Virus record (IMG/VR): IMGVR_UViG_3300049844_000277
Coordinates: 36,520-100,519 of that record
Direction: 5' to 3' (one strand)
From: a virus
DNA: 64,000 nucleotides
The translations under genes were made by a program, and so were the position numbers. The notes under the pieces are model-generated. The model was not told the DNA's origin. It did not search any database and saw only the letters and a list, made by a program, of their open reading frames with translations. Below, one piece after another: positions 9,086-37,527 of the stretch; within the stretch, counting starts at the first letter, position 1; every line of letters begins with the position of its first letter.

Positions 9086-10885
9086 TTAGTAACGCCCTTC
9101 CGGACCCATCCCAAATTCAGCCCCATAAGCATAGGCGGGTACCGGATGCGTACTGTGTAAATCAGACGCAGCGCCGGTTCGTGCCCCCTGCAGAAGGGAA
9201 TCCTTTAGATATCGGTGAGCCAAGCGCGCCATCCAGTCAGGATGTAGCAGTGGATTACGTGCCATCGGACGCATCAAAAATTCTACCCGAGGTAATGTAG
9301 TGGCGACAGATACTTCCGAAATTTTATGCTCATTCAATTTCTGTATAACTGATGGTGTTAACGGAGTTCCGGCGGTGAAGTGAAGAACTTCTTTACCGAG
9401 TACACCACCCTCCGCCTGCTTCAACGGAACAGATTTACTGTGCCGTGCTGCGGCATCTCTATACGTTGAGTAAGGAATAACCTCGCCCTTTACCAACGTA
9501 GGATGCTCATCAGTATGCTCGAGAACTTTGACGTGGTTGAGGTCCGCGCGGGCAACCAACTCAAGGTGCCGCTTGTCGACATTGAGTCCTTGTCCATGAT
9601 AGATGTCGTGCAATGTGTCCACGAGGTACTGTCGTCCGACACCAAAGCCCTTGTGATGAATGAGCTCGTCTGGTTTCGGAATTCCTTCTGATAAGACATC
9701 CCCCGCCTCTACTTTCTGTCCCACATGAACTAAGATTTTTAAGTTTGGTCCGGCGTAATGTTGTAAAGCATCAACATGCACGTATGTTCCACCGTGCGGA
9801 GCTGGGATTATTTTTGTAATAGTACCTGCGTGCTCTGCTAGCGGTGCTTTATTAATGAAGGTCTGGGGGATTTCCAAAAGCTGACGGATACCAGACATCC
9901 CCTCTAACTTGGGGGATGTACCTTTGAGTAACCGCATACCGTGCTTAGCGCCGAGCGCCATTTGAGTCAACGGTTCGGAGATAGACTGGGCGGCACGGAC
10001 TCCGACGTTAACACCGATAGCGTGCGGACGTCCTCGCTCATCTAGACCCTGGCACTTACGACAGACGCCATCCTTGGTGACGCAGGTCATTGGTGAACGC
10101 ACGTACACTGTACTGACCTTTGCCTGAAGCTTAGACGCCACTTCTTTTGTAACTAAATCATTCCGATGAAATCCAGCCTGGTCTCGAGATAAATAGCGGT
10201 CAACAATATTTCCATCGGAACTATTCATTGCGAGACCGTTATCAGTTCCGCAATCGTCCTGGGTAATAACCAGCGGATACATATTGTTGGTCATCACCTT
10301 AGACATATCGCCAGGCTCTGCGATGGCCGTATAGGTTTGTACGATGTTATGTCGCGCTTCGTTTCCTGCGGCCCAATGGTCAGCAGCGGACAACCCTTCG
10401 GCGTAGGACTTACTGATTAGCCAGGGATTTATCTCCCCTTTGCTTGTCGTAGTCGCAACCGGGGACGCAATGGTTTTCATCAGCTGCGGAATATTGCCGC
10501 GCGCACCCGACAATGCCATCGAGGTCATAGAACCTGGATGCTTTTTGGTGTGCTCAAGCATCTTCTTTTGTACATCTAAAATAATCTTCTCTTTGGCGTC
10601 TCTATTGTCCGCGTTTTTAATTGCGGCGACAGCGGGCTGCATGATGCTGTCGCGTTCTTTGTACTCCGGCGTAATGTCATCCAACCCTACAGAGACACCT
10701 TCAAGCGTAGAGATGTCGTCCCCTAAGGTTTTTAGCTTAGAGACAATTTCTACGTATTCGGCAGGATCTTCCTTGGCCAAGTCCAACATTTTCTGTTGGA
10801 ACTCTTTTTTATTTAGTGTGCCCGTAATGTGATGCTTCCCGGGCAGCAGGCTATTGACCAGAAACCTACCTAACGGCTGAGCCAT
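9086..10885 (-). CDS. rpoC: DNA-directed RNA polymerase beta' subunit, C-terminal module (trigger loop / regions F-H). This is the split second half of beta'.
   Basis: N-terminus [31 protein letters not shown] aligns with E. coli beta' [54 protein letters not shown] matches the AAQSIGEPGTQLTMRTFH motif. [20 protein letters not shown] matches [20 protein letters not shown]. Confidence 0.85.
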   Translation of the reverse strand: [599 protein letters not shown]

Positions 10886-10891
10886 GGGAAT

Positions 10892-11308
10892 CTATCTCGC
10901 CCCGTATGGGTCATTAGGAGGCGGAGGTTGTTGAGGTTGAGACGGTGTCATGGCCTGCTGTATGCCCATCATAGCTAGGGGAATAGACGCTTGAATCGCC
11001 ATATCCCGCCCAAAACTTTTTAAACCTGATTTCCAACCACCTGGCTCTTGGGCTGGCGTTGCGGGGACCTCAGGTGTCTTTGGTACAGTGTCCGCAGACG
11101 TCACTGCCGGATTGGCGGTACCACCAAAAATAGGCGGCTTGCCTGCTGGCTGCTGTACCGGCGCTGCTGGCGATGTCTTCGGCGTAACAGGTTTGCCCTT
11201 CTGACCCTTCGCGAAGCGCAGCATCTGAACGGGCGCAGGCGCAGCCGTTTTCGTAAACGTCATCCACGCATCAGTAGTTCCCACAGAATAAAAGATATCG
11301 GCAATCAT
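10892..11308 (-). CDS. Pro-rich small hypothetical protein.
   Basis: ORF between the RNAP gene pieces. PQQPPPPNDP and PAAPVQQPAGKPP tracts. Confidence 0.4.
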   Translation of the reverse strand: MIADIFYSVGTTDAWMTFTKTAAPAPVQMLRFAKGQKGKPVTPKTSPAAPVQQPAGKPPIFGGTANPAVTSADTVPKTPEVPATPAQEPGGWKSGLKSFGRDMAIQASIPLAMMGIQQAMTPSQPQQPPPPNDPYGAR

Positions 11309-11664
11309 ATCGCAGCTCCGTCCCGACCAATGCCGGAGTAATCATACGTAGGCGAGCCGCCGCTCCAAGGACTTGATACTCCGCCCCATCGTACGGGGTT
11401 CCCAAAACGCTCGCGACGTTTATCACGCTCAGGGGAAATCCCCGGGTCCATGTCCGTAAGATGCTTAGCTAACCGCTCCGCGGCTACGTTCATATCCCCG
11501 TGCGGAATAGCATGCTGCATGGCATGAGCGGCGGTTCTCACGCCGAAATCTTCTTCTGCGCGAATTCTACCTTCAGCGTAAGCTAAATTCGTCATACGAA
11601 AACCTAGGCTACTCTCGCCCACTACGCAATCGATTAGGTGTAACAGCGTTCTCTTTCCAACCAA
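11305..11664 (-). CDS. Hypothetical protein (119 aa) with a faint, unproven resemblance to RNAP omega.
   Basis: Position inside the RNAP operon. The segment MTNLAYAEGRIRAEE weakly resembles the omega SKYRLTVVVAKRAQQL helix pattern. Weak evidence only. Confidence 0.35.
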   Translation of the reverse strand: MVGKRTLLHLIDCVVGESSLGFRMTNLAYAEGRIRAEEDFGVRTAAHAMQHAIPHGDMNVAAERLAKHLTDMDPGISPERDKRRERFGNPVRWGGVSSPWSGGSPTYDYSGIGRDGAAI

Positions 11665-11750
11665 CTAAAGCTTCGCGCTTTTTAACGGCATCCTTTAGTT
11701 TCTGCGCTAATTCTTCAGCGGCGATGCGCTGTCCTTCCTCGTAAGCGTAC

Positions 11751-12380
11751 TTAAGTACCGGCTCCACGGGAACCTCCTTCACAGAACATCATTCGCCGTA
11801 GGTCATCAGCATGCTGCTGGTCAGTAAGGACCATTTGCTCCAGCATGACCTTAAGCGACAAATTATCTCCGGCCATGTCTGACAGATGTCGTAACTCTTC
11901 AATCAATTGCTTCTCAGTTTGTAGAAGAGTCATGAAAATCTGGTGGAGGTCACTCATGTTCGGGATGACACCTACCTTAGGAATAGGTTCTCCGCCTAAC
12001 GCCGTAATCTTCATTGCGAGATGGTAGGCGTCCATCCGCTCTTCTTTGATGTGCTCTTTAAAGTGGTCGTAGATAACATCTCTAAAGTGCGCACGAATAC
12101 GATCGCCATAATTCATATACATGAAGATGATGGTATATTTGTAGCGCAGCAACTTATTACACTGAGCCACTACCTTATCCTGGGCAACCGCGAAGAATCC
12201 TTCCTCGGCCGATACAGCAAGAGGATGAGCACCAGCAGATGCTGTGGCAAGCGGAGGCATGGCGAACATCTCCTCCGTGTGCGGGGATGACTCCATTGTG
12301 TCCGCCATTGGACTGCTAGGAACTGGAAGACTCGAGCCACTCTCAGCCATGGAAGTACCCACTTTGTAGCGCTGCGTCAT
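11751..12380 (-). CDS. Ferritin-like (bacterioferritin/Dps-fold) four-helix-bundle protein.
   Basis: KEERMDAYHLAMKITALGGEPIP matches the EExxHAD.L.ERI..L.G.P helix-B pattern of bacterioferritin/Dps. C-terminal LEQMVLTDQQHADDL matches the ILESEEEHIDYL pattern of the last helix. Confidence 0.5.
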   Translation of the reverse strand: MTQRYKVGTSMAESGSSLPVPSSPMADTMESSPHTEEMFAMPPLATASAGAHPLAVSAEEGFFAVAQDKVVAQCNKLLRYKYTIIFMYMNYGDRIRAHFRDVIYDHFKEHIKEERMDAYHLAMKITALGGEPIPKVGVIPNMSDLHQIFMTLLQTEKQLIEELRHLSDMAGDNLSLKVMLEQMVLTDQQHADDLRRMMFCEGGSRGAGT

Positions 12381-15300
12381 GTACCCACCTCAACTCGAGT
12401 ATTGAGCGTAATCTCCCCGCGCTTATAGGCGGCGAGAGCTTCTTCTCTATTTTTGAAATGGCGTACTTTATCGTTCGCGGAACTCTCGGCTTTGGACGCC
12501 AAATGTACCCCAAGCATAGCTTCCATTCGTGGCGCTACCATCAAGCTATCTTTTTCACGGTCCGAGAATAGAAGGTTTGAGAGAGTCATCCCCTTCACTT
12601 CATCTATCGCGGGCTTCAGTACGGGAACGTGGATTTGGAATGTGTCCCAAACTACGAGGCCGTCGTTGACCGCGAAAATTTGTGTGTCAGGAACAATAAG
12701 GTCATAGACGGTTTCTTTTCTTAATACCTCGACCGACTCTACTAGATCCCAGGTAATTCCAACGTTCTCAACGATCCTTGCCCAAGCATCGACATCTGGT
12801 GTTTTGGCCGTCCGGAAAAAATGCAACATACGCCGAGCGTTTTGCCTCGTAACGTATGGAGCCTCTTTTCGTTTAGATCGTAGCGTAGCCAATGATGCGC
12901 AGAACGAACTATCTTCCGCGCACGGACCAGTACGGCTGGAGGCGAGGGTCATTAGATTTTTAGGAACAGGAACAATATCCACCTGATCCACAAGTTCATC
13001 AGCTTCTAGGAGGTTCAAAGCCTCCAAAGATTTAGAGTTGTTCCAAATTCCTCTACGAAGCCAGGACACGTTACGCTGGAGGTCTACGGTACTAATAGGT
13101 ATCGTATAAGCTACAGCTTTTTGGAGACGTCCCTCCTTCGGATATGCTTCGCTCACAGAACACCGGACGCCGATAGTTTGTAACAAAAAACGTAATGAAG
13201 CTGCTAACGCAGCAGACGACGTGTGAAGGGCGGCCATCACTTGAAGTTTTGCCTTACCGGCGCTGACAGTGAGTGTACCGTCACCGTTCAACATTCCGAT
13301 GAGCACACCCCACCGAGCCTCCTCAGACCAGTCCCCAAACGCTGGCACGCGTTTCGAGAGACAAGAGCGTCCGGGTACCCTCTCATCTAAGTAACAAGTC
13401 TTGAACAGCTCAACGCACTTCTGCGCACCACTAAAGTGGTCTTTGATACTTTGTCCTGTTATTCCGTTAGATGCGTCGTGTACCTCACGATACGTATTTC
13501 GCTTAATGAGCTTACCCTCAAACGCATTCACCGCGGCAGCAAAGCGTTCACGGTGCACGTCACTAACTTTCGTGTACCCGAAATAATGATCGGTTTCACC
13601 CAGTAAGAAACCGTCGGACAAGAATGCGCCGACCATCCATCCAAACTCAAAATCCCCCTGTGACCCCGTTAACGGTAAATGCCGCACAACCGGAGCTAAC
13701 TTTCCAACGGAATCCGAGGGCGCTGTTGCTTCGATCTGACCTGTTTCATGGTTATAAATACACAACGACTCATTCGTCGACGCCGTAACGCTTAAACCAC
13801 GACGCATTTCTACTTTCGCCACTTCGCATCCGTCTTCAATCGTAAGTCCTGTCACCGGGGACATTACTGATTTACTTGCGGAGTGGTCGTAAGAAAGAAC
13901 GCGAAAACCCTCCGGAACGGCGTAACTGCGAGCACCATTCTTGTCGATACTATAGGGCTCCTCAGCGTGTGGAATCTCTTGAAGCTCCGCTTCCACCAGC
14001 GCCTGTACCGCTGAGGTCCAACAAACACGAGTCTCTGCCGCGAATTTCATGGCTGTCTCCTTGGCTTCATCGCCAAGGAGCGCTTTACAAGCCGCACCTT
14101 CTGCTGTCAACACAACTTTCGTCGAACCCAAGAAACAGTTTCCATCGTAATCCGCATTGAAGCCAAGCTCTGCGAACGGATTTACGCGAATCGTCTTCCC
14201 CGCAACAGGGACGGCGTGAGCGCCAATAAACCCGTACCGGTGGAGAGTCGGAGCGCGATTCACCATCACCGGACGCTCCTTAATCTCCGCCATCAACGCG
14301 TCGTGCGCTGCCGGATGTTTCTTTTCCAACATCTCTTTCGCTTGAATGGCTCCGAAGCCGCGACGGATAAGGCGTGAGATAATAAACTTCCCGTACATGC
14401 CCCAAAGCATGTCTATCGGAATACCTATCTCATCCATGCTCAGAGAGCCGTCTGGAGCTATGGTTCCGCGGCCGGAGATATCTTGCTGCCGCTTCATTAT
14501 TCGTTTTTGGAAAAAGGAACTGTTCCCCGATACGGAAGGTTTACCGTTACGGCGAACAACTACAGTACCATTAGGGACTGTCACACAATACACGGTTCCT
14601 TTGTACGGGTACGCCTCGGTAAAAGAGCCCGACTCAATGGTGACATCAGAAAACCCCCGCACAGAAAAAAGATAATGCGGGAGATGGTGATCCTTAACTG
14701 GCGGACAAATTCCTCTAAAAATAACTTGGTAACCTATTTTTGCAGCGAGATGCTGTAGGTCATCAATTAATTGTAAACTAGCGGTACCGGCGTGAGCACT
14801 CAGCGGTTTACGCCGATAATGGGTTTTCGGGTTTTTCACGTTCTTCGCTAACGAAGGGTGAAGGGTTCCATCTCCACGCAGATATCCGCGCAATAATCCC
14901 TCTAACATAGCAGAAGGCCACGCTAAAATATCTGAAGATAAGTGTTTACTCTCGCACCCACGCCCGCAATGATGCGTTAACCAATCCGCCAGTGAGCGTA
15001 ACCTAATAGTCCACCAGATTACCTGGTATCCATCTTTACGCGTATATGTTTTGCGTACAAAGGGAATATCCAATTTTTTAAAGCACAAATCCACCGCGCG
15101 AACGTGTGGAGACGTTGCGGCTTGACACAAAGAAACCTGGGTTCCTGTTGTGGAAATCCAACCTTCCGCAATCCACCAACCTACAAACTCCGCAAAGGCC
15201 AAAGGATCTGGAGTAAATGTTCCTACTAAATTAGCCGTACGCCGTTTTTTGTTATCCGTAGAAACTTCACACGTATCTCCCGCGAAAACCAACTCCGGAA

Positions 15301-18300
15301 AAGTACCCTCCCACTCCTCAGCGCTAACCATTACCCTCCGGCGGTCCGTGCCTATAAAAGTATCCGCGCGTACCTTTTCCCACGGAGTCCAGACATAGAG
15401 CGCCTTACCGTTACTTACGCGCTTACGGCGATACGAGACTACATGTTCGTGGTTAGGTGTTACACATAAATCAAGTTCACGGCTGCGCGTATGTATCAGA
15501 TCTCCGTCGAACGGCATGGATACTAACGCGGTCGGCTTCTGCCATTCAAATTCCCGGGTGTCTAAGTTAACCGTAGCGACACGAGTTTTTCCGGTGTACT
15601 TAGAAAAACGAACCCACCCTTTTTCTGTAAGAATATCTGTTTGATCATCGTAACATTTTGGCGTAGTTTTCCCGGTAATATGCTCGAGAAATCCCTTTAC
15701 GTTTCTCTTTTGGAGTTTGGGGTTATCTGATTCGTGCGTACCAATCACGGCGCCTACCGCGTGAAACAAGTTCTGACGAAGCTTCGCTTGTTCATCCGGC
15801 GGAAGAATTGGAGATTCAATTTGCTTCCGTAATGACTGATTATGAAGGATAGCGCTTTGGTACAGGTAGTTCGAATCACCTACTACGAGCTCAGAGCCAC
15901 TCTTCCCCGGAAGAATGGGTCGCATTATTGGAGGAAGAACAGGCAACTTGGATAGGACGTACGCATCTCCCGGCTTGAGCTCCTGCCGATTCAGCGCCTC
16001 AAGGAACTTCAACTGCTTTACTGCGTCATCTAGCTTCGTACCGGAGAGCGACTTAATAGAGTTACGGAGCTCCGCGATACGCGCCTTAACGTCGATAGCG
16101 TTAAGCTTTTTCTTTACCGCAGCGCCACCATTCGTATGGTGATACTGGTCAAAATCTTTCGCGGTCATCCCCAGCAAGCGACGGGCAGGGTCGGCGAATA
16201 CAGGATTTACAACGGGCTCGGCGAGCTCAATGTGGCTCCACCGTGTTCCAGTGGTACCGCCAGTAACCGCGGGGTCAAACAATCCCCCACGTTCAGCGGC
16301 CAAATCTTTAGCGCGTACTAACTTCTCATTTTGTACTTCGCCAGATGACATCCGTAGAATGTCTTTATCGGTAAGCGGAGAGAGCGTGCTGATACTTCCA
16401 CGCGAATCAACTTTGACCCCTGCGCCATGCAGCATACCGATGAACTTGTCATAAACGAACGACGACTTGAGTGGAGGGAGAGGCAGTCCCAGCTGAATCG
16501 CCCGCCAGAACTCATCGTTCTTCTGGCTCTTAATAGCCGCCGTCTCTCGAAGCACGTTCCGCGCATTATGTGCAACGAGGGCATTGAACTCCATTTTACC
16601 GACGGCTTTCGCGCCTTCGTCACCGCCCTTAATTGGCTGCTGATTAACGTCGTACGCACCCGTACCGCGCGCGGCGTAGTTGGTCTCCGTGGTCTTAAAC
16701 AAGCGAAGTACGTATTGCGGCCCAACCAGGATTCCCGGAATCTTTTTACCCGACACAGGGTCTATCAGCGTTTCCTTGTCCTTGACCTTGTGCTCCTTCA
16801 GTAAATCCTTTGCCCACTGTACGTTGTCACGCCCTGAAAAGTTTTCAACGACAATAGGTTTACCGATTTTCTTGGCAACCTTAGCGACACACGTCTCTAG
16901 TATTTGCGACGGATTGATTCGGGAAATTACGCCAGCCGAGGTATACAAAACCTCAATCGGCTTACCCGTCTCATCTTGAAGCATCTTGTGATCGGGAACA
17001 ATAAGGGAAACAACGCCCTTGTTTCCGTGGCGTCCTGTGTTTCCGCACCATACTGATTTACCATTTCTGCGAACATACAAAACATGTCCAGGAACAGTTA
17101 CACAGTAAACTGGTGATTTGTACGAATCTACAAAACATTCCACCTGACCCTTCTGTCGTTTGATATGTCCATGATTCACAGTAGGTGTTAATTTCGAATT
17201 AATAATTCGTACCTGCCAATAATCACGACACCAAAAATCTTTACCTTTGATTGTTTGATACCCTTCAGCTTTCGCTAACGACACATTAGCAGCTTTACCA
17301 ATATGTAGTGCGAGACGCTGAACATCATCCGCCAAACGTTTGGATGTTGTTTTGTAGCATATCGGTTGGCCATTTTTAGTATGACCGTCACCCCACATCA
17401 ACCAGTTGAATAGCGTCTCTTGATCCGCTCGAGACCAAGCGAACACCTCAAGCGGGATAAATTTCTCGTAAGACTTACCGAACTGTTTAAAGTACTGCCA
17501 ATATTGCTTGGAATGAATACGAACCTTATCACCTGTGTCCGTGAATAAAATCCCTTCCTCACGAAGAAACTTTTCTAACTGTTTTCGATTTGGCTGATTA
17601 ATTTGCGTAATCTCTATGCCGTAAGTACCGGATTCTTCAATCGTAATGAGATTACCTTCAGATAAAAACGCACCGAGAAGAGCGGCTAAGGTTTTAGTCG
17701 GAAGCGCTTTATCATCTAAAACACGTAAACCCCGGCCCCCTTGTCCCGCGCGCACAGTTATCGAGTCAAATACAAACGACTCAGGAGAGTGCCCCACCCA
17801 AATCCCATCCTTCTTATAACTGACCCTTTTTCCTGCGATTTCATACGCCGGTAAAAGTTGGAAAGATTTCTCGTTGCGCGGTTGAACGTACATATGATGT
17901 CCGTCGGTCACAAACAAATCTACCTGTTGTGATTCGATGCGGTACATCCGTCCGCCTTCTGGATACGAATGAATTGCGTCGGGCTCTAGGTACTCGATAT
18001 TTTCGCCATTCTGTAACGTACAAATCTTATCCGTAATACGTACATCCGCTATCGGTTTCCACCCTTCCCACGTGAGAACCTCAGTCTCTGCATCATAACA
18101 GAGCTTGTCTCCGACGCGCATCGGCTCACGGGTCTTAACCGTTACAACGACACGCTTGTCCGTCACATAAACATCCATGACTTCACCTTCGAAGTCGTGG
18201 TCCCACGTACGAACAAGTTCCCGATACGGCGTAACTAACGTCTTCTTTAGGTTACCGAGAAGCGCATCAGACGCCGAAAGTTTACCTCGTGTGACTCCAG

Positions 18301-34143: not shown

Positions 34144-37100
34144 GTGCCCACAACCCGAGGAGCTCTCATGGAGAAGCCCGCAGAAATCTGCAGCGGATGT
34201 CCTCGAGAAATCGAGACAGAGACCCATCCCTACGGTTATGTTGAATCGTGGATTGATTCAAACGCCGAACTCATCATCATAGCGGAAGCTCCTGTCTGCG
34301 ATCGCCACGGTAACGTTCCTAGCTCTTTCGACGATGACAGCGGTAAAATCATTCGAACCGCCGTATCCGAGCTACGTAACTTACCTTCGCACAGTAAGCT
34401 AGCGGTCTCGTATACGTACGCAGTACTCTGTACAAGCAACCAGGGCGACAAAGACCCCGAAAAAGCCGTACTGCAACGGTGCCGTACGCTGCTCCAAGCT
34501 GACTTACGTCGCGCAAACAAGAACGCCGTCCTGCTGGTAATGGGTATGTCTGCCCTTCGCGCACTAGAAATAAAAGCCGCGAAGTTGAAGGACATGCAGG
34601 GGCGATTACTCCAAAAGCAGAAAATTGGAGAAGGTGATGACGCTCCGATATTCGATGTCGTCGTAACCGTCTCGACAAAACAGTTGTTCGCGATGCCGGG
34701 AATCTACACGACGTTCGTAGCGGACCTGCGACGAGCTGCGGACGCTGCGAGCGCAGGTGGATTAACACACGTTACCCCACTCGAAAAACTAACCGAAAAA
34801 TACGTAATCCCGAAAACAATCGAAGAAGTACGCCAAATCTGTCGCGAAATACTGAATTATCAAGAAGGTAAAGTATCTGCAGATAACTGGCCTATCTCTG
34901 TAGACACCGAGACAAACACCAAGTTTCCACACCGAGAAAACTTGAAAGTATTGGCGGTGTCCTTCGCATGGGCGGAGGGTAAAGCTACTGCAATTCCATT
35001 AGAGCACCCCACTACACCCTACGCGTACCAAGACGCGATACCGTACGTACGCGAAGTCTTAGCGAGCAAGAAGCCGAAGTTCCTTCATAATGCTAAGTTC
35101 GACCTTAAAGTCTTCATGAAAGCGGGCTGGCCGATTAACGGGTTCGCTTGGGATAGCATGCTAGGGGAACATGCTCTCGAAGAAGATAAAAAGGGACAGT
35201 ACGGATTAAAGCAGTTGACCCGTACTTTCTTCCCGGAATTCGCGACATACGCCGACTCTCTTCAAGAAATGCTCACGCACGAAGAGGGCGACTCGCAGCT
35301 CGACAACCTGAGGAAAGCGCCAAAAGCTTCAACTTCGAAAGATGGGGGATTTGAAAGTATCCCACTTCCCACGCTATTGCTTTATGCGGCAGTCGATGCA
35401 GATATGACACGGCGGCTAGTGTTACTGCAGGAAAAAAGAATTACCGACGAGCAGAACAGAGTAATCGTAGAAACGAATATAACGAAGAGAGAGCAGGCGC
35501 TGGCGATTTCGGCGAGGAAGAAAATACGGCTGAGAATTGCGCCGCTACATAGTGAGACGGAGATGTTGAAGAAGTACATGGTGCTCTACCCCGTCCCAGA
35601 ACTCTGTTCCGCTGATAAGCCGGTAAGACAACTAGTACTGAACAACGTATTCCCCGTTACCCCAGCTCTCGCGAGAATGGAGTTTAAGGGCATACGGATA
35701 GACAGACCGTACCTAACTACGTTGCGTGAAGCGTTGGGAAAAGTCGTCACAGAAACCGCTGCAGAGCTACAGGATATGGCGGGCAGAGAGATAACTCTCA
35801 ATAGTCCGGCAGAGATAGCTGAAATCCTGTTCAACAGCGGGTTTATACATCCAACAACTCACGCCCCCACGACTTATCCCCTCACAGGCATCGGTAAGAC
35901 AAAAACGGGACAGATACAAACCACCGAGAAAGTGATGCAGTACTTGGTGGCGAAGTATCAGTGCCCCTTTGCAGCTAAAAAACTAATCTACGCCAAGGCA
36001 TATAAAGCGAAAAATACGTTCTGTCAGAATGTGTGGGATCTCTCGGAGCTCGACGGGTATCTACACACGAACTACAACCAGCACGGCACAAATTCGGGTA
36101 GACTGTCCTGTGTCGCGGGAGAAACCGTACTAGATACTAATTACGGAAAAATCGAGATACAGAATCTCGATCTGGAGAAGATGCCGGGGATTACCATCCA
36201 GACCCACGAACTCCGCGAACAACCGATTCTACGTAAAATAGAAAAAGGCATTGAAGAAATGTTCGAGGTCGAACTCGAAGACGGGCGCACCATCACCGTG
36301 ACTAAAAAACATCGCTTCTTGACGCCGACGGGGTGGAAACGACTCGAGGAACTGTCAGAAAATGCCGAAATACTCTGCGCCGCCTCCGTGGGTAGTGGAC
36401 CAAATATGCGACTCGTTACAACCCGGATAAAAAGCATACGTCCCGTAGGTCCTAAGAAAGTCTGGGACCTCACAGTAGCGGTCGATCACTCTTACATCGC
36501 CCACGGATTTGTTAACAAAAATTCCAACGATGAAAACATGCAAAACATCCCCAAGAAATTGGCGGGTGTTAACATTAAGAAAGTGTTCCTCCCGGACGAT
36601 GATTCGTATGTCTTCGTCAACGCTGATGCGAAGGGTGCCGAAGTACGAATCCTAACCGCCTACTGCCGAGACCAAGCGCTCATACAATCGCTCAACGCGG
36701 GGCAGGACACGCATTGTTTCATCGCGTCCAAGATTGTTGAAATCGTACGTCAGAGTCCTGGTGCAACGGCGGTTCTCGGAAGCATGAATCTAAGCGATGA
36801 GTATCCTCTGACGTACGAAGACTTCGCGGCTAGAGACAAGCTAAAAGAAACCAATAGTAAGTACGGGGCGATGCTCGACAAATTCAGAACCGCTGTCAAA
36901 CGCGTAGTGTTCGGTATTCTGTACGGCGCCGGTCCTCAGAAAATTGCGGAAACTATTGGTATCAGTCTAGAGCAAGCACAACAGCTCATTCACACTCTGT
37001 TCGCTTTGTTTCCGTCCATCAAGACGTACATGGCGCAGACAAAGTGGGAACTACAACAATTTAATTTAGTCGAAACGTTCTTCGGTAGACGCCGTAGATT

Positions 37101-37527
37101 TAGTGTATCGGGAGCGCCGAAGTATCAAATAGGGAGAGCTGAACGTCAGACAGTTAATTTTAAAATCCAAAGCACAAGCTCTGATATCGTAATGGGACGA
37201 TTACTAGCAATCGAAGAACCTCTCAAAGATTTGGGAGGTAGACTTCTATTGACAGTGCACGACAGCCTTGGGTTTCAAATCAAGAAAAAATATATCCGAC
37301 AGCTACCTGATTTCATTTATACGTATTTGGAGAAGGGTGCAGCAGACGCCCATCCATGGCTCCCAGTCGCATTTAAATGGGACTACGAAGTTGGGTCATC
37401 ATACGGCGAACTCAAATCACTGGAATCCTACCTTGCCAACACGAAAATAGAGGAATACTCGAACGATGCCTACGTCGCCGAGGCTTTCACAGAAGAAGAC
37501 GCAAGAACCTCCCTCTCCGAACCCTGA
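34144..37527 (+). CDS. polA: Family A DNA polymerase (Pol I-like) with a 3'-5' exonuclease domain, interrupted by a mini-intein.
   Basis: - Exo I: ISVDTETN.
- Exo III: YAAVDADMTRRL.
- Pre-motif A GRLS//SNDENMQNIP matches GRLSSSDPNLQNIP.
- Motif A: FVNADAKGAEVRIL.
- Motif B: RTAVKRVVFGILYGAG.
- Motif C: LLTVHDS. Confidence 0.9.
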   Translation: MPTTRGALMEKPAEICSGCPREIETETHPYGYVESWIDSNAELIIIAEAPVCDRHGNVPSSFDDDSGKIIRTAVSELRNLPSHSKLAVSYTYAVLCTSNQGDKDPEKAVLQRCRTLLQADLRRANKNAVLLVMGMSALRALEIKAAKLKDMQGRLLQKQKIGEGDDAPIFDVVVTVSTKQLFAMPGIYTTFVADLRRAADAASAGGLTHVTPLEKLTEKYVIPKTIEEVRQICREILNYQEGKVSADNWPISVDTETNTKFPHRENLKVLAVSFAWAEGKATAIPLEHPTTPYAYQDAIPYVREVLASKKPKFLHNAKFDLKVFMKAGWPINGFAWDSMLGEHALEEDKKGQYGLKQLTRTFFPEFATYADSLQEMLTHEEGDSQLDNLRKAPKASTSKDGGFESIPLPTLLLYAAVDADMTRRLVLLQEKRITDEQNRVIVETNITKREQALAISARKKIRLRIAPLHSETEMLKKYMVLYPVPELCSADKPVRQLVLNNVFPVTPALARMEFKGIRIDRPYLTTLREALGKVVTETAAELQDMAGREITLNSPAEIAEILFNSGFIHPTTHAPTTYPLTGIGKTKTGQIQTTEKVMQYLVAKYQCPFAAKKLIYAKAYKAKNTFCQNVWDLSELDGYLHTNYNQHGTNSGRLSCVAGETVLDTNYGKIEIQNLDLEKMPGITIQTHELREQPILRKIEKGIEEMFEVELEDGRTITVTKKHRFLTPTGWKRLEELSENAEILCAASVGSGPNMRLVTTRIKSIRPVGPKKVWDLTVAVDHSYIAHGFVNKNSNDENMQNIPKKLAGVNIKKVFLPDDDSYVFVNADAKGAEVRILTAYCRDQALIQSLNAGQDTHCFIASKIVEIVRQSPGATAVLGSMNLSDEYPLTYEDFAARDKLKETNSKYGAMLDKFRTAVKRVVFGILYGAGPQKIAETIGISLEQAQQLIHTLFALFPSIKTYMAQTKWELQQFNLVETFFGRRRRFSVSGAPKYQIGRAERQTVNFKIQSTSSDIVMGRLLAIEEPLKDLGGRLLLTVHDSLGFQIKKKYIRQLPDFIYTYLEKGAADAHPWLPVAFKWDYEVGSSYGELKSLESYLANTKIEEYSNDAYVAEAFTEEDARTSLSEP
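36109..36522 (+). mobile_element. Intein 5: mini-intein (138 aa, no endonuclease domain) in the DNA polymerase.
   Basis: - Starts CVAGETVLDTNYGKIEI.
- Ends VWDLTVAVDHSYIAHGFVNKN with +1 Ser.
- Boundaries codon-verified (tgt at 36109 = Cys; aat at 36520-36522 = Asn). Confidence 0.8.

Follow-up and report, generated by a model that had tools for sequence, protein, structure and literature searches.

An intein clade in the catalytic loop of phage RNA polymerases pairs with an encoded asparagine at the third position of the aspartate triad

Archaeal PolD, whose core is homologous to that of multisubunit RNA polymerases (msRNAPs), has the consensus metal-binding motif N-x-D-G-D and is active with Asn or Asp in that motif, the N962D variant being an active enzyme (PMC7708050). 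In about half of PolD species, an intein lies directly after the Asn of N-x-D-G-D (PMC7708050), with flanks that read ...KRN/C...Q/CDGDED (PMC8175363; a slash marks a splice junction here and below). Our analysis concerns a 64,000-nucleotide stretch of viral DNA, referred to as the window (IMG/VR record IMGVR_UViG_3300049844_000277, positions 36,520 to 100,519), in which an intein that we call intein 3 interrupts the Mg-binding loop of the RNA polymerase beta' subunit. The residue encoded immediately before this intein occupies the third position of the catalytic aspartate triad, and it is Asn rather than Asp.

The host gene, intein 3 and its junctions are laid out as follows; residue numbers refer to the open reading frame (ORF), and -1 and +1 denote the residues flanking the intein.

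12377..20887, minus strand: single ORF of 2836 aa, a fusion of RNA polymerase beta with the N-terminal half of beta' that contains three inteins
14138..14158, minus strand: codons for N-A-D-Y-D-G-N, the beta' Mg-binding loop; intein-free homologues all have Asp at the last position
14138-14140, minus strand: AAC codon for Asn(-1), the third triad position
12644..14137, minus strand: intein 3, 498 aa, ORF residues 2251-2748, a HINT splicing domain in which a LAGLIDADG homing endonuclease is nested
14135..14137, minus strand: TGT codon for Cys1 (Cys2251), the nucleophile at the N-terminus of intein 3, which opens block A, CFLGSTKVVL
13766..13780, minus strand: block B, S-T-N-E-S, with Ser at B:7 and Glu where the canonical catalytic His B:10 sits
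13604..13642, minus strand: first LAGLIDADG motif of the nested endonuclease, GWMVGAFLSDGFL, read directly from the sequence
13271..13312, minus strand: second LAGLIDADG motif, WGVLIGMLNGDGTL, likewise read directly
12674..12709, minus strand: block F, VYDLIVPDTQIF, with Asp F:4 retained and Gln at F:13
12644..12661, minus strand: block G, G-L-V-V-W-D, with Trp at the penultimate-His position and Asp, not Asn, at the end
12644-12646, minus strand: GAC codon for the terminal Asp (Asp2748)
12641-12643, minus strand: ACA codon for Thr+1 (Thr2749)
12380..12643, minus strand: C-extein, 88 aa, TFQIHVP..., which completes the beta' N-half; stop codon at 12377-12379

On the minus strand, positions 14158..14135 read AAT GCG GAT TAC GAT GGA AAC TGT, or N-A-D-Y-D-G-N-C, exactly as a first-pass annotation of this DNA had read them; the span it quoted (14135-14160) is otherwise exact but takes in two bases of the preceding Phe codon. 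Set against the NADFDGD loop of beta', the first and second Mg-binding Asp are present (N-A-D-Y-D-G) and the third, E. coli D464, is not encoded, an Asn codon (AAC) standing in its place. The intein ends with the codons GGC CTC GTA GTT TGG GAC (G-L-V-V-W-D), and ACA is followed by TTC and the rest of F-Q-I-H-V-P, which confirms the annotated ending ...VVWD before T-F-Q-I-H-V-P and a terminal Asp in place of Asn. With standard boundaries, the spliced product ...NADYDGN-TFQIHVP... is colinear with the NADYDGD-TFQIHVP of intein-free homologues, so the residue-for-residue match to the DGD form, save for Asn at the third Asp, also holds. An independent fragment, P0022, is 99% identical and has Asn(-1) and terminal-Asp junctions of the identical type. 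What the annotation had not foreseen is that this junction pattern is a feature of an entire family, a recurrence well outside what chance would give.

Several features identify intein 3 as an intein. It is an in-frame insertion, as judged from 106 intein-free homologues (up to 83% identical) that are colinear across the junction. It begins with a nucleophile, Cys1, within a block A sequence (C-F-L-G-S-T-K-V) that agrees with the usual C-x-x-x-x-T-x-V pattern, and it is followed by a +1 nucleophile, Thr2749. Block F contains V-Y-D-L, whose Asp F:4 is 99% conserved among the relatives described below and aligns with the VFDL of the Ssp DnaB mini-intein. In fact, blocks F and G of the family profile align with that mini-intein without any shift, VFDLTVPGPHNFVAND-IIVHN against VYDLvvPetkVFavanGlivYD, so that the aromatic residue takes the penultimate-His position and the terminal Asp the position of Asn G:7.

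Other canonical features are absent. The T-x-x-H of block B is replaced by S-T-N-E-S, with Glu at the His position, as read from a weaker stretch of the DnaB comparison in which T-A-N-H stands opposite the S-x-N-E of the family. The C-terminal His-Asn pair (G:6, G:7) is Trp-Asp here and Tyr, Trp or Phe followed by Asp in the relatives. At F:13, where canonical inteins have His, the window copy has Gln and 90% of its clade has Lys. The class 3 signature (no N-terminal nucleophile, Cys at F:4, WCT) does not apply either, as intein 3 has Cys1 and Asp F:4. Its Pfam Intein_splicing score is under the curated cut-off.

An AlphaFold2 model of intein 3 with its flanks (predicted local distance difference test score, pLDDT, 76; predicted template modelling score, pTM, 0.74) has PI-PfuI as its best Foldseek match in the PDB (E 5.9e-17; template modelling scores 0.59/0.67), followed by the TliVMA intein and PI-SceI and then by the free-standing LAGLIDADG endonucleases I-SceI, I-OnuI and I-DmoI. 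The modelled structure is that of a HINT fold with a nested endonuclease. Pfam LAGLIDADG_3 gave no report for intein 3 at E<=0.01; the two LAGLIDADG motifs (GWMVGAFLSDGFL and WGVLIGMLNGDGTL) and the fold matches identify the endonuclease. The insertion pattern, the fold, Cys1, Asp F:4 and the +1 nucleophile make this element an intein. That Cys1, Thr+1 and the terminal Asp are conserved offers indirect support for the predicted autocatalytic excision with joining of the exteins.

A word-indexed search with intein 3 found only five relatives, 30-47% identical and with junctions alike, and the same kind of search with the spliced C-terminal region returned intein-free DGD homologues plus the intein-bearing C-terminal fragment P0022. 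The family came to light in an exhaustive HMMER profile search of 1.84 billion cluster representatives, which gave 6230 hits; the family figures that follow are from the best 150 of these 6230. Tabulation anchored on the hidden Markov model settled both junctions in 108 of the 150, and the junction types are N/C...D/T (100), N/C...D/S (4) and D/S...D/T (4). Cys1 and the terminal Asp are present in 104/104 of the Asn(-1) representatives, as in the window copy, and the penultimate residue is Tyr in 60, Trp in 34, Phe in 6 and another residue in 4. Block B of the clade has an Asn that is 100% conserved and a Glu that is 91% conserved. Of the 21 positions with conservation of 90% or more in the clade, the window copy has retained 19.

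At the DNA level, ten loci (L001-L010, of which L004 and L005 are identical at the junctions) repeat the Asn(-1) and terminal-Asp junctions. Seven are metagenome loci found with the intein profile (L004-L010), one of which belongs to a more divergent polymerase with the loop GGDFDGN, and four are split-gene relatives (L001-L003, L006). Across 11 DNA sequences the Asn(-1) codon is AAT in 6 and AAC in 5, and the terminal Asp codon is GAC in 9 and GAT in 2. That the residues are constant while both Asn codons and both Asp codons occur indicates purifying selection. Searches of IMG/VR, of GTDB genomes and of deposited phage genomes each found no relative of intein 3.

The clade takes several forms. 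Seven members are mini-inteins of 195-302 aa that have the same junction pattern and no endonuclease. Natural split relatives (L001, L003, L006, L002, P0185) are broken about 25 residues past Cys1, and they appear from their gene structure to be atypically split inteins sited in a polymerase active site. The split genes lie at 4443-7443 in L001, 83-3159 in L003, ~4031 in L006 and 3608-5788 in L002, with P0185 as a further case; an example of an N-terminal piece is ...DFDGN/CIIGGSKLIIRIDKNSEAWKQIMGC followed by a stop codon. A separate variation affects the loop itself: thirteen Asn(-1) alleles (P0051, P0057, P0058, P0065, P0068, P0081, P0085, P0088, P0093, P0119, P0130, P0132, P0164) have D-H-D-G-N, in which the residue separating the first two Asp is His and not Phe or Tyr, a variant seen in 0/80 of the intein-free relatives from IMG/VR.

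The window's intein 3 belongs, as an intact copy, to a large clade of class-1-type inteins that appears not to have been described before. Members of this clade home into the Mg loop of beta' in phage msRNAPs, exactly between the third triad position and the next Thr, and the clade signature is Asn(-1), Cys1, S-x-N-E, Asp F:4, Lys or Gln at F:13, an aromatic-Asp end and Thr(+1).

Comparing alleles with and without the intein separates two neighboring residues. The intein-free set consists of 26 relatives from a protein search and 80 from IMG/VR (49-83% identical, on contigs up to ~195 kb), and the third triad position is Asp in 106/106. When 63 predicted spliced DGN-T junctions were made into a profile for a word-indexed search, no phage-type DGN allele free of an intein emerged, a weak negative given that only 84 candidates were returned. 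At +1, the 80 IMG/VR intein-free alleles have Thr in 49, Ala in 28 (35%) and Ser in 3, compared with Thr in 100, Ser in 4 and Ala in 0 of the 104 intein-bearing alleles. The restriction to Thr and Ser in every intein allele, though Ala is common in intein-free ones, shows selection for a +1 nucleophile. Such selection implies true transesterification and ligation at the D/T bond, the standard junction, and argues against both a cleavage-only role and a one-residue shift of the junction.

One 130-aa fragment, P0183, with NADFDGNQMVGHVPLSIEAQAE, has Asn at the third triad position along with several other substitutions. It resembles plastid or cyanobacterial rpoC1, and it is probably a degraded plastid-derived copy and no kin of the phage family.

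Thirty-six further profile hits are other inteins at the identical point in beta'. In sixteen, Asp is found both at the intein end and at -1; these mostly start with Ser1, three with Cys1, and examples are DFDGD/SCIGST...YD/T and DFDGD/SGRF...QD/T. The other twenty belong to a different family, which lacks a position-1 nucleophile and has a canonical ...LSN/T end after DGD. In a neighbor-joining tree (264 core columns, LSN family as root, 60 bootstraps with capped distances), the Asn(-1)/Cys1 inteins, that is the 104 representatives and the window copy, form one clade in 48/60 bootstraps, and the sixteen Asp(-1) inteins are its sister. The Asn(-1) clade has Cys1, S-x-N-E-S in block B and Lys at F:13 (90%). 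The sister clade has mostly Ser1 and S-x-D-H-S in block B (Asp 87%, His 87%), which means that the canonical His B:10 is retained there.

This pairing, Asp(-1) with His B:10 and Asn(-1) with Glu B:10, is suggestive of a contact between B:10 and the side chain at -1. In canonical inteins, B:10 activates the N-terminal scissile bond (PMC4031507), and experiments on the Ssp DnaB intein have shown a functional interplay of the -1 residue with the block B His, in which the -1 residue can compensate (PMC6333167). The similarity of inteins is only weakly coupled to that of their exteins (Spearman 0.29), indicating that the intein and the adjoining Asn codon have moved together among diverse polymerases.

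The LSN family shows variations of its own. In a subclade of five representatives (P0151, P0153, P0167, P0169, P0175), the second triad Asp is replaced by Asn, giving D-F/H-N-G-D with the Asn in an Asn-Gly context three residues from the junction; Asp-to-Asn changes of the triad are therefore recurrent in intein-bearing alleles. The inteins with DGD/T junctions (P0094, P0133, P0138, P0146, P0147, P0154, P0155, P0159, P0161-P0163, P0168, P0170, P0177, P0179) have Q, A, D, N, E, F or S at position 1, a penultimate Ser, a terminal Asn and Thr at +1. From these residues they look like class-2 or class-3 inteins, but their block F is G-Y-D-L and has no Cys F:4.

From the anatomy, conservation, covariation and fold described above, we infer how the intein splices and which residue the mature protein carries. 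The reading that we prefer, with confidence only a little better than even, is that intein 3 splices by the class-1 route with cyclization of its terminal Asp and leaves a mature DYDGN enzyme. An N-S acyl shift at Asn(-1)-Cys1 would be followed by transesterification onto Thr(+1), the terminal Asp would then cyclize and release the intein, and an O-N shift would give ...NADYDGN-TFQIHVP..., with the ligated junction peptide ...GFNADYDGNTFQIHVPVLK. Class-1 splicing is what is generally assumed for inteins whose last residue is Asp, Gln or Glu, and Asp at G:7 is a rare known variant (PMC4031507).

We hypothesize that Asn(-1) has co-adapted with the intein as an element of its splicing active site, where it partners Glu B:10. 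It may serve as an isosteric, uncharged stand-in for Asp, imposed because Asp(-1) triggers premature N-terminal cleavage in many inteins, while Asn(-1) is among the slow-cleaving residues (PMC11842431). As the Asn codon abuts the intein, it would be co-converted during homing. The mature polymerase would then hold Mg-A via Asp-Asp-Asn. Such an enzyme is plausible on two counts: the third triad Asp contacts Mg-A only, the first two bridging Mg-A and Mg-B (PMC13198411), and PolD works with N-x-D-G-D. The non-canonical active site that the first-pass annotation offered as one possibility is in this sense the favored reading, with conversion of Asn to Asp as the alternative to it.

A number of observations weigh against a mature DYDGN enzyme. 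A well-tolerated Asn should sometimes appear without the intein, and it does so in 0/106 intein-free alleles. The Asn appears to have entered many RNA polymerase backgrounds with no visible compensating changes near the site; a comparison of the window with 82%-identical intein-free relatives likewise revealed no compensating acidic residues near the junction. A costly Asn would sit oddly with a clade that surpasses its Asp(-1) sister, which bears no such cost, in diversity (104 versus 16 representatives) and that survives in immobile forms, as mini-inteins and as split inteins. In E. coli RNA polymerase, replacing the triad Asp residues by Ala causes severe defects. The literature describes the msRNAP Asp triad as universally conserved. 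The parallel with PolD is imperfect: the triad position taken by Asn is the first in PolD (N/CDGD) and the third beside intein 3, and PolD keeps its Asn with or without an intein while the phage enzymes have theirs only in intein-bearing alleles. In addition, intein 3 has lost all three canonical catalytic His, so its chemistry may be non-standard, and the identity of the mature residue is read from the gene and not from the protein.

Much of this could be explained if the Asn were a masked aspartate, which is unlikely in our judgment but the strongest of the alternatives. Splicing would use the standard boundaries, and as it proceeds or immediately afterwards Asn(-1) would become Asp by hydrolysis or transamidation, which would give DYDGD; until that splicing-coupled removal, the amide would prevent attack of the -1 carboxylate on the Cys1 thioester. 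Glu B:10 or Cys1 might catalyze the conversion, the amide nitrogen might pass to a terminal-Asp anhydride, or Mg might assist a deamidation in the assembled site. Such a mechanism would account for the complete split between Asn in 104/104 clade members and Asp in 106/106 intein-free alleles, for the carriage of Asn into diverse polymerase backgrounds, and for the success of the Asn clade over its Asp(-1) sister and its persistence in endonuclease-free and split forms. It is also in keeping with an intein active site that is unusually acidic in the absence of the three canonical His. Asn-Gly is a classic site of fast deamidation, and the D-F-N-G-D subclade of the LSN family has its second-position triad Asn in just this context.

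Several points tell against the masked aspartate. We know of no intein reaction that converts Asn to Asp, and a search of the literature on splicing-coupled deamidation and on DFDGN/DYDGN found no paper on one. Canonical inteins with a natural Asn(-1), such as those of archaeal DNA polymerases, leave it unchanged, and the known succinimide routes from a C-terminal Asn yield Asn or isoAsn, not Asp. The sixteen sister inteins combine a terminal Asp with Asp(-1), so a terminal Asp is not tied to an amide swap, and PolD demonstrates that a triad Asn can function. A strict exchange of Asp and Asn between -1 and the intein end was considered separately and rejected, since the sister-clade inteins have Asp at both places.

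We regard as improbable a third scheme, processing without ligation, in which both junctions are cleaved and beta' remains nicked inside its catalytic loop. The N-terminal fragment would then end in Asn or isoAsn (Asp alpha-amide), whose free carboxylate would replace that of the third Asp. Relatives with genes already split at exactly this point, and the division of the window's own beta' into two genes, fit with this, and iso-Asn can arise from succinimide hydrolysis (PMC4031507). Against it stands the +1 residue, which is Thr or Ser in 104/104 although intein-free alleles may have Ala, a restriction expected only with transesterification and hence ligation; Cys1 is invariant too. To our knowledge, a nick in a buried Mg loop has no precedent.

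Shifted boundaries are less probable again. If the excised segment were N-C...W, joining DYDG to DTFQ would give the canonical DYDGD-T, with the terminal Asp as the catalytic one; the product would be canonical in both clades, and it would be understandable that the terminal Asp never varies and that -1 may be either Asn or Asp. However, blocks A, F and G are in register with canonical inteins, placing Cys at position 1 and Asp at G:7, and the second intein family at the site ends ...SN/T after DGD. The Cys acyl shift activates the Asn-Cys bond, not Gly-Asn; Asp is unusable as a +1 nucleophile; and Thr or Ser is strictly needed after the terminal Asp. An atypical splice junction, which the first-pass annotation had entertained, is unlikely for the same reasons, given also that the Asp(-1) sister yields a canonical product with these same boundaries. 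That annotation had further looked to homologues with DxDGD and different intein boundaries, and there are none among the intein-bearing alleles. Its remaining suggestion, a degenerate non-splicing copy in a dead polymerase gene, we reject as the least credible of all: His B:10, His G:6 and Asn G:7 are all missing and the Intein_splicing score is low, but the unusual residues form a conserved, co-adapted trait kept under purifying selection across 104 representatives (more than 100 clusters) with synonymous codon variation, the window copy is a typical member (27/30 positions matched at the 80% conservation level; family median 28), its 8.5-kb ORF is intact and holds two further intact inteins, and the split-gene relatives would lack function without trans-splicing.

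Taken together, these considerations leave two surprises, an Asp-Asp-Asn polymerase or an intein-made conversion of Asn to Asp, one of which must hold. If the mature enzyme is DYDGN, many phage msRNAPs run on Asp-Asp-Asn, which would change the view of what is essential for Mg-A binding, and the parallel with the N-x-D-G-D of PolD hints that intein pressure can reshape polymerase active sites. If the Asn is a masked aspartate, an intein would be editing Asn to Asp after translation, a new reaction that is not known from protein splicing. Only passage through the intein would then give active DxDGD, and a gene from which the intein DNA had been precisely deleted would be dead, making the intein addictive to its host by a mechanism acting at the protein level. 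The family is of interest in either case for its active site without the three canonical His, its Glu B:10 and aromatic-Asp end, and the co-adaptation of extein and intein. Mini-inteins down to 195 aa and split forms with N-fragments of ~25 aa may be of use as protein-engineering tools, and they also offer models of how inteins cope with a -1 aspartate.

The assignment of the host gene rests on Pfam matches within the 2836-aa ORF. Rpb2_6 and Rpb2_3 match its first half and Rpb1_1 and Rpb1_2 its second, and the gene is therefore a fusion of beta to the N-half of beta'; the Rpb1_2 match stops at aa 2250, directly before intein 3. With its three inteins removed, the beta-beta' product would have 1606 aa. 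The C-half of beta' is encoded by a separate gene, so that beta' is split over two genes in the window. Since the window also encodes a terminase, PolA, an SNF2 helicase and a VapE-like protein, we assign it to a phage. At least five inteins are present in its 64 kb, and those other than intein 3 are listed here with the second beta' gene.

17039..18100, minus strand: intein 1, 354 aa, ORF residues 930-1283, in a beta motif, GDKL/C...CGN/TGRHGNKG, with a LAGLIDADG_3 Pfam match
14522..15655, minus strand: intein 2, 378 aa, ORF residues 1745-2122, GKTTPK/C...SGN/SSFFQ
36109-36522, plus strand: 138-aa mini-intein in a family A DNA polymerase (ORF 34144-37527), ...GRLS/CVAGETVL...FVNKN/SNDEN
23269-24549, minus strand: 427-aa LAGLIDADG intein in a 1003-aa protein (ORF 22363-25374), KANE/CVSLDTL...GGATKN/SIALE
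9086-10885, minus strand: C-terminal half of beta', 599 aa, Pfam RNA_pol_Rpb1_5, E 7.6e-19

Inteins 1 and 2 of the polymerase gene are canonical, with T-D-G-H and T-P-N-H, respectively, in block B and a terminal Asn in both; P0032 also holds an intein at the intein 2 site. The two resemble each other in their CYD... start, in VYCVTVP...VRRNGK inside and in their ...GN end, and both combine Cys at F:4 with Cys1 and the canonical His B:10. The 1003-aa host of the 427-aa intein has no PHROGs match.

The region between the two beta' genes (10892-12380, minus strand) contains a ferritin-like ORF and two small ORFs. The ferritin-like ORF (11751-12380; Pfam Ferritin, E 4e-11) starts with a 4-base overlap of the polymerase-gene stop, and the two small ORFs have no match in Pfam or PHROGs. 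Within the beta part of the fusion there is an InPase domain (18761-19120, minus strand, aa 590-709; Pfam PF18823, E 1.6e-32). An inorganic-pyrophosphatase-like domain built into an RNA polymerase subunit is unusual, and judged by the predicted activity, removal of pyrophosphate could pull polymerization forward.

How does intein 3 compare with other known inteins? RPB2, RPA2 and RPC2 are genes for second-largest subunits and do not encode the beta' Mg loop. Inteins are carried by these three RNA polymerase genes in eukaryotes and giant viruses (PMC1635734), and the literature searched yielded no report of a changed catalytic residue. The same literature search found no intein in a beta' Mg loop, no DxDGN msRNAP and no S-x-N-E/aromatic-Asp signature. 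In fold and domain order, intein 3 is like PI-PfuI (1dq3), TliVMA (7qss), PI-SceI (1vde) and Ssp DnaB (1mi8). It shares Cys1, Asp F:4 and a +1 hydroxyl nucleophile with canonical class-1 inteins, but its clade differs from them in having Glu for His B:10, Ser for Thr B:7, Lys or Gln for His F:13 and aromatic-Asp for His-Asn, and identity is only 10-13%.

AceL-TerL, GOS-TerL and VidaL are atypically split inteins with a short N-fragment, and the split relatives of intein 3 resemble them; the host gene and the catalytic residues differ, and the window copy is contiguous. A C-terminal Asp, with presumed class-1-like cyclization of that Asp, is said to occur in the RIR1 intein of Carboxydothermus hydrogenoformans, reportedly described by Amitai and colleagues in 2004. 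Compared by description, that intein shares the terminal Asp with intein 3 and sits at another site in another host protein. It is a single example for which no Asn(-1)/Glu B:10 signature has been reported, whereas the intein 3 clade comprises more than 100 clusters.

By analogy, the PolD/PolII intein is the closest conceptual relative of intein 3. The PolII (PolD DP2) inteins of Pyrococcus abyssi and P. horikoshii, like intein 3, interrupt an acidic metal-binding motif of a two-barrel polymerase. Both have a triad Asn at -1, Cys1 and a C-terminus other than Asn, which is Gln in the PolII inteins. They differ in that the PolII inteins have Cys at +1 and reside in an archaeal DNA polymerase, whereas intein 3 has Thr at +1 and resides in a phage RNA polymerase.

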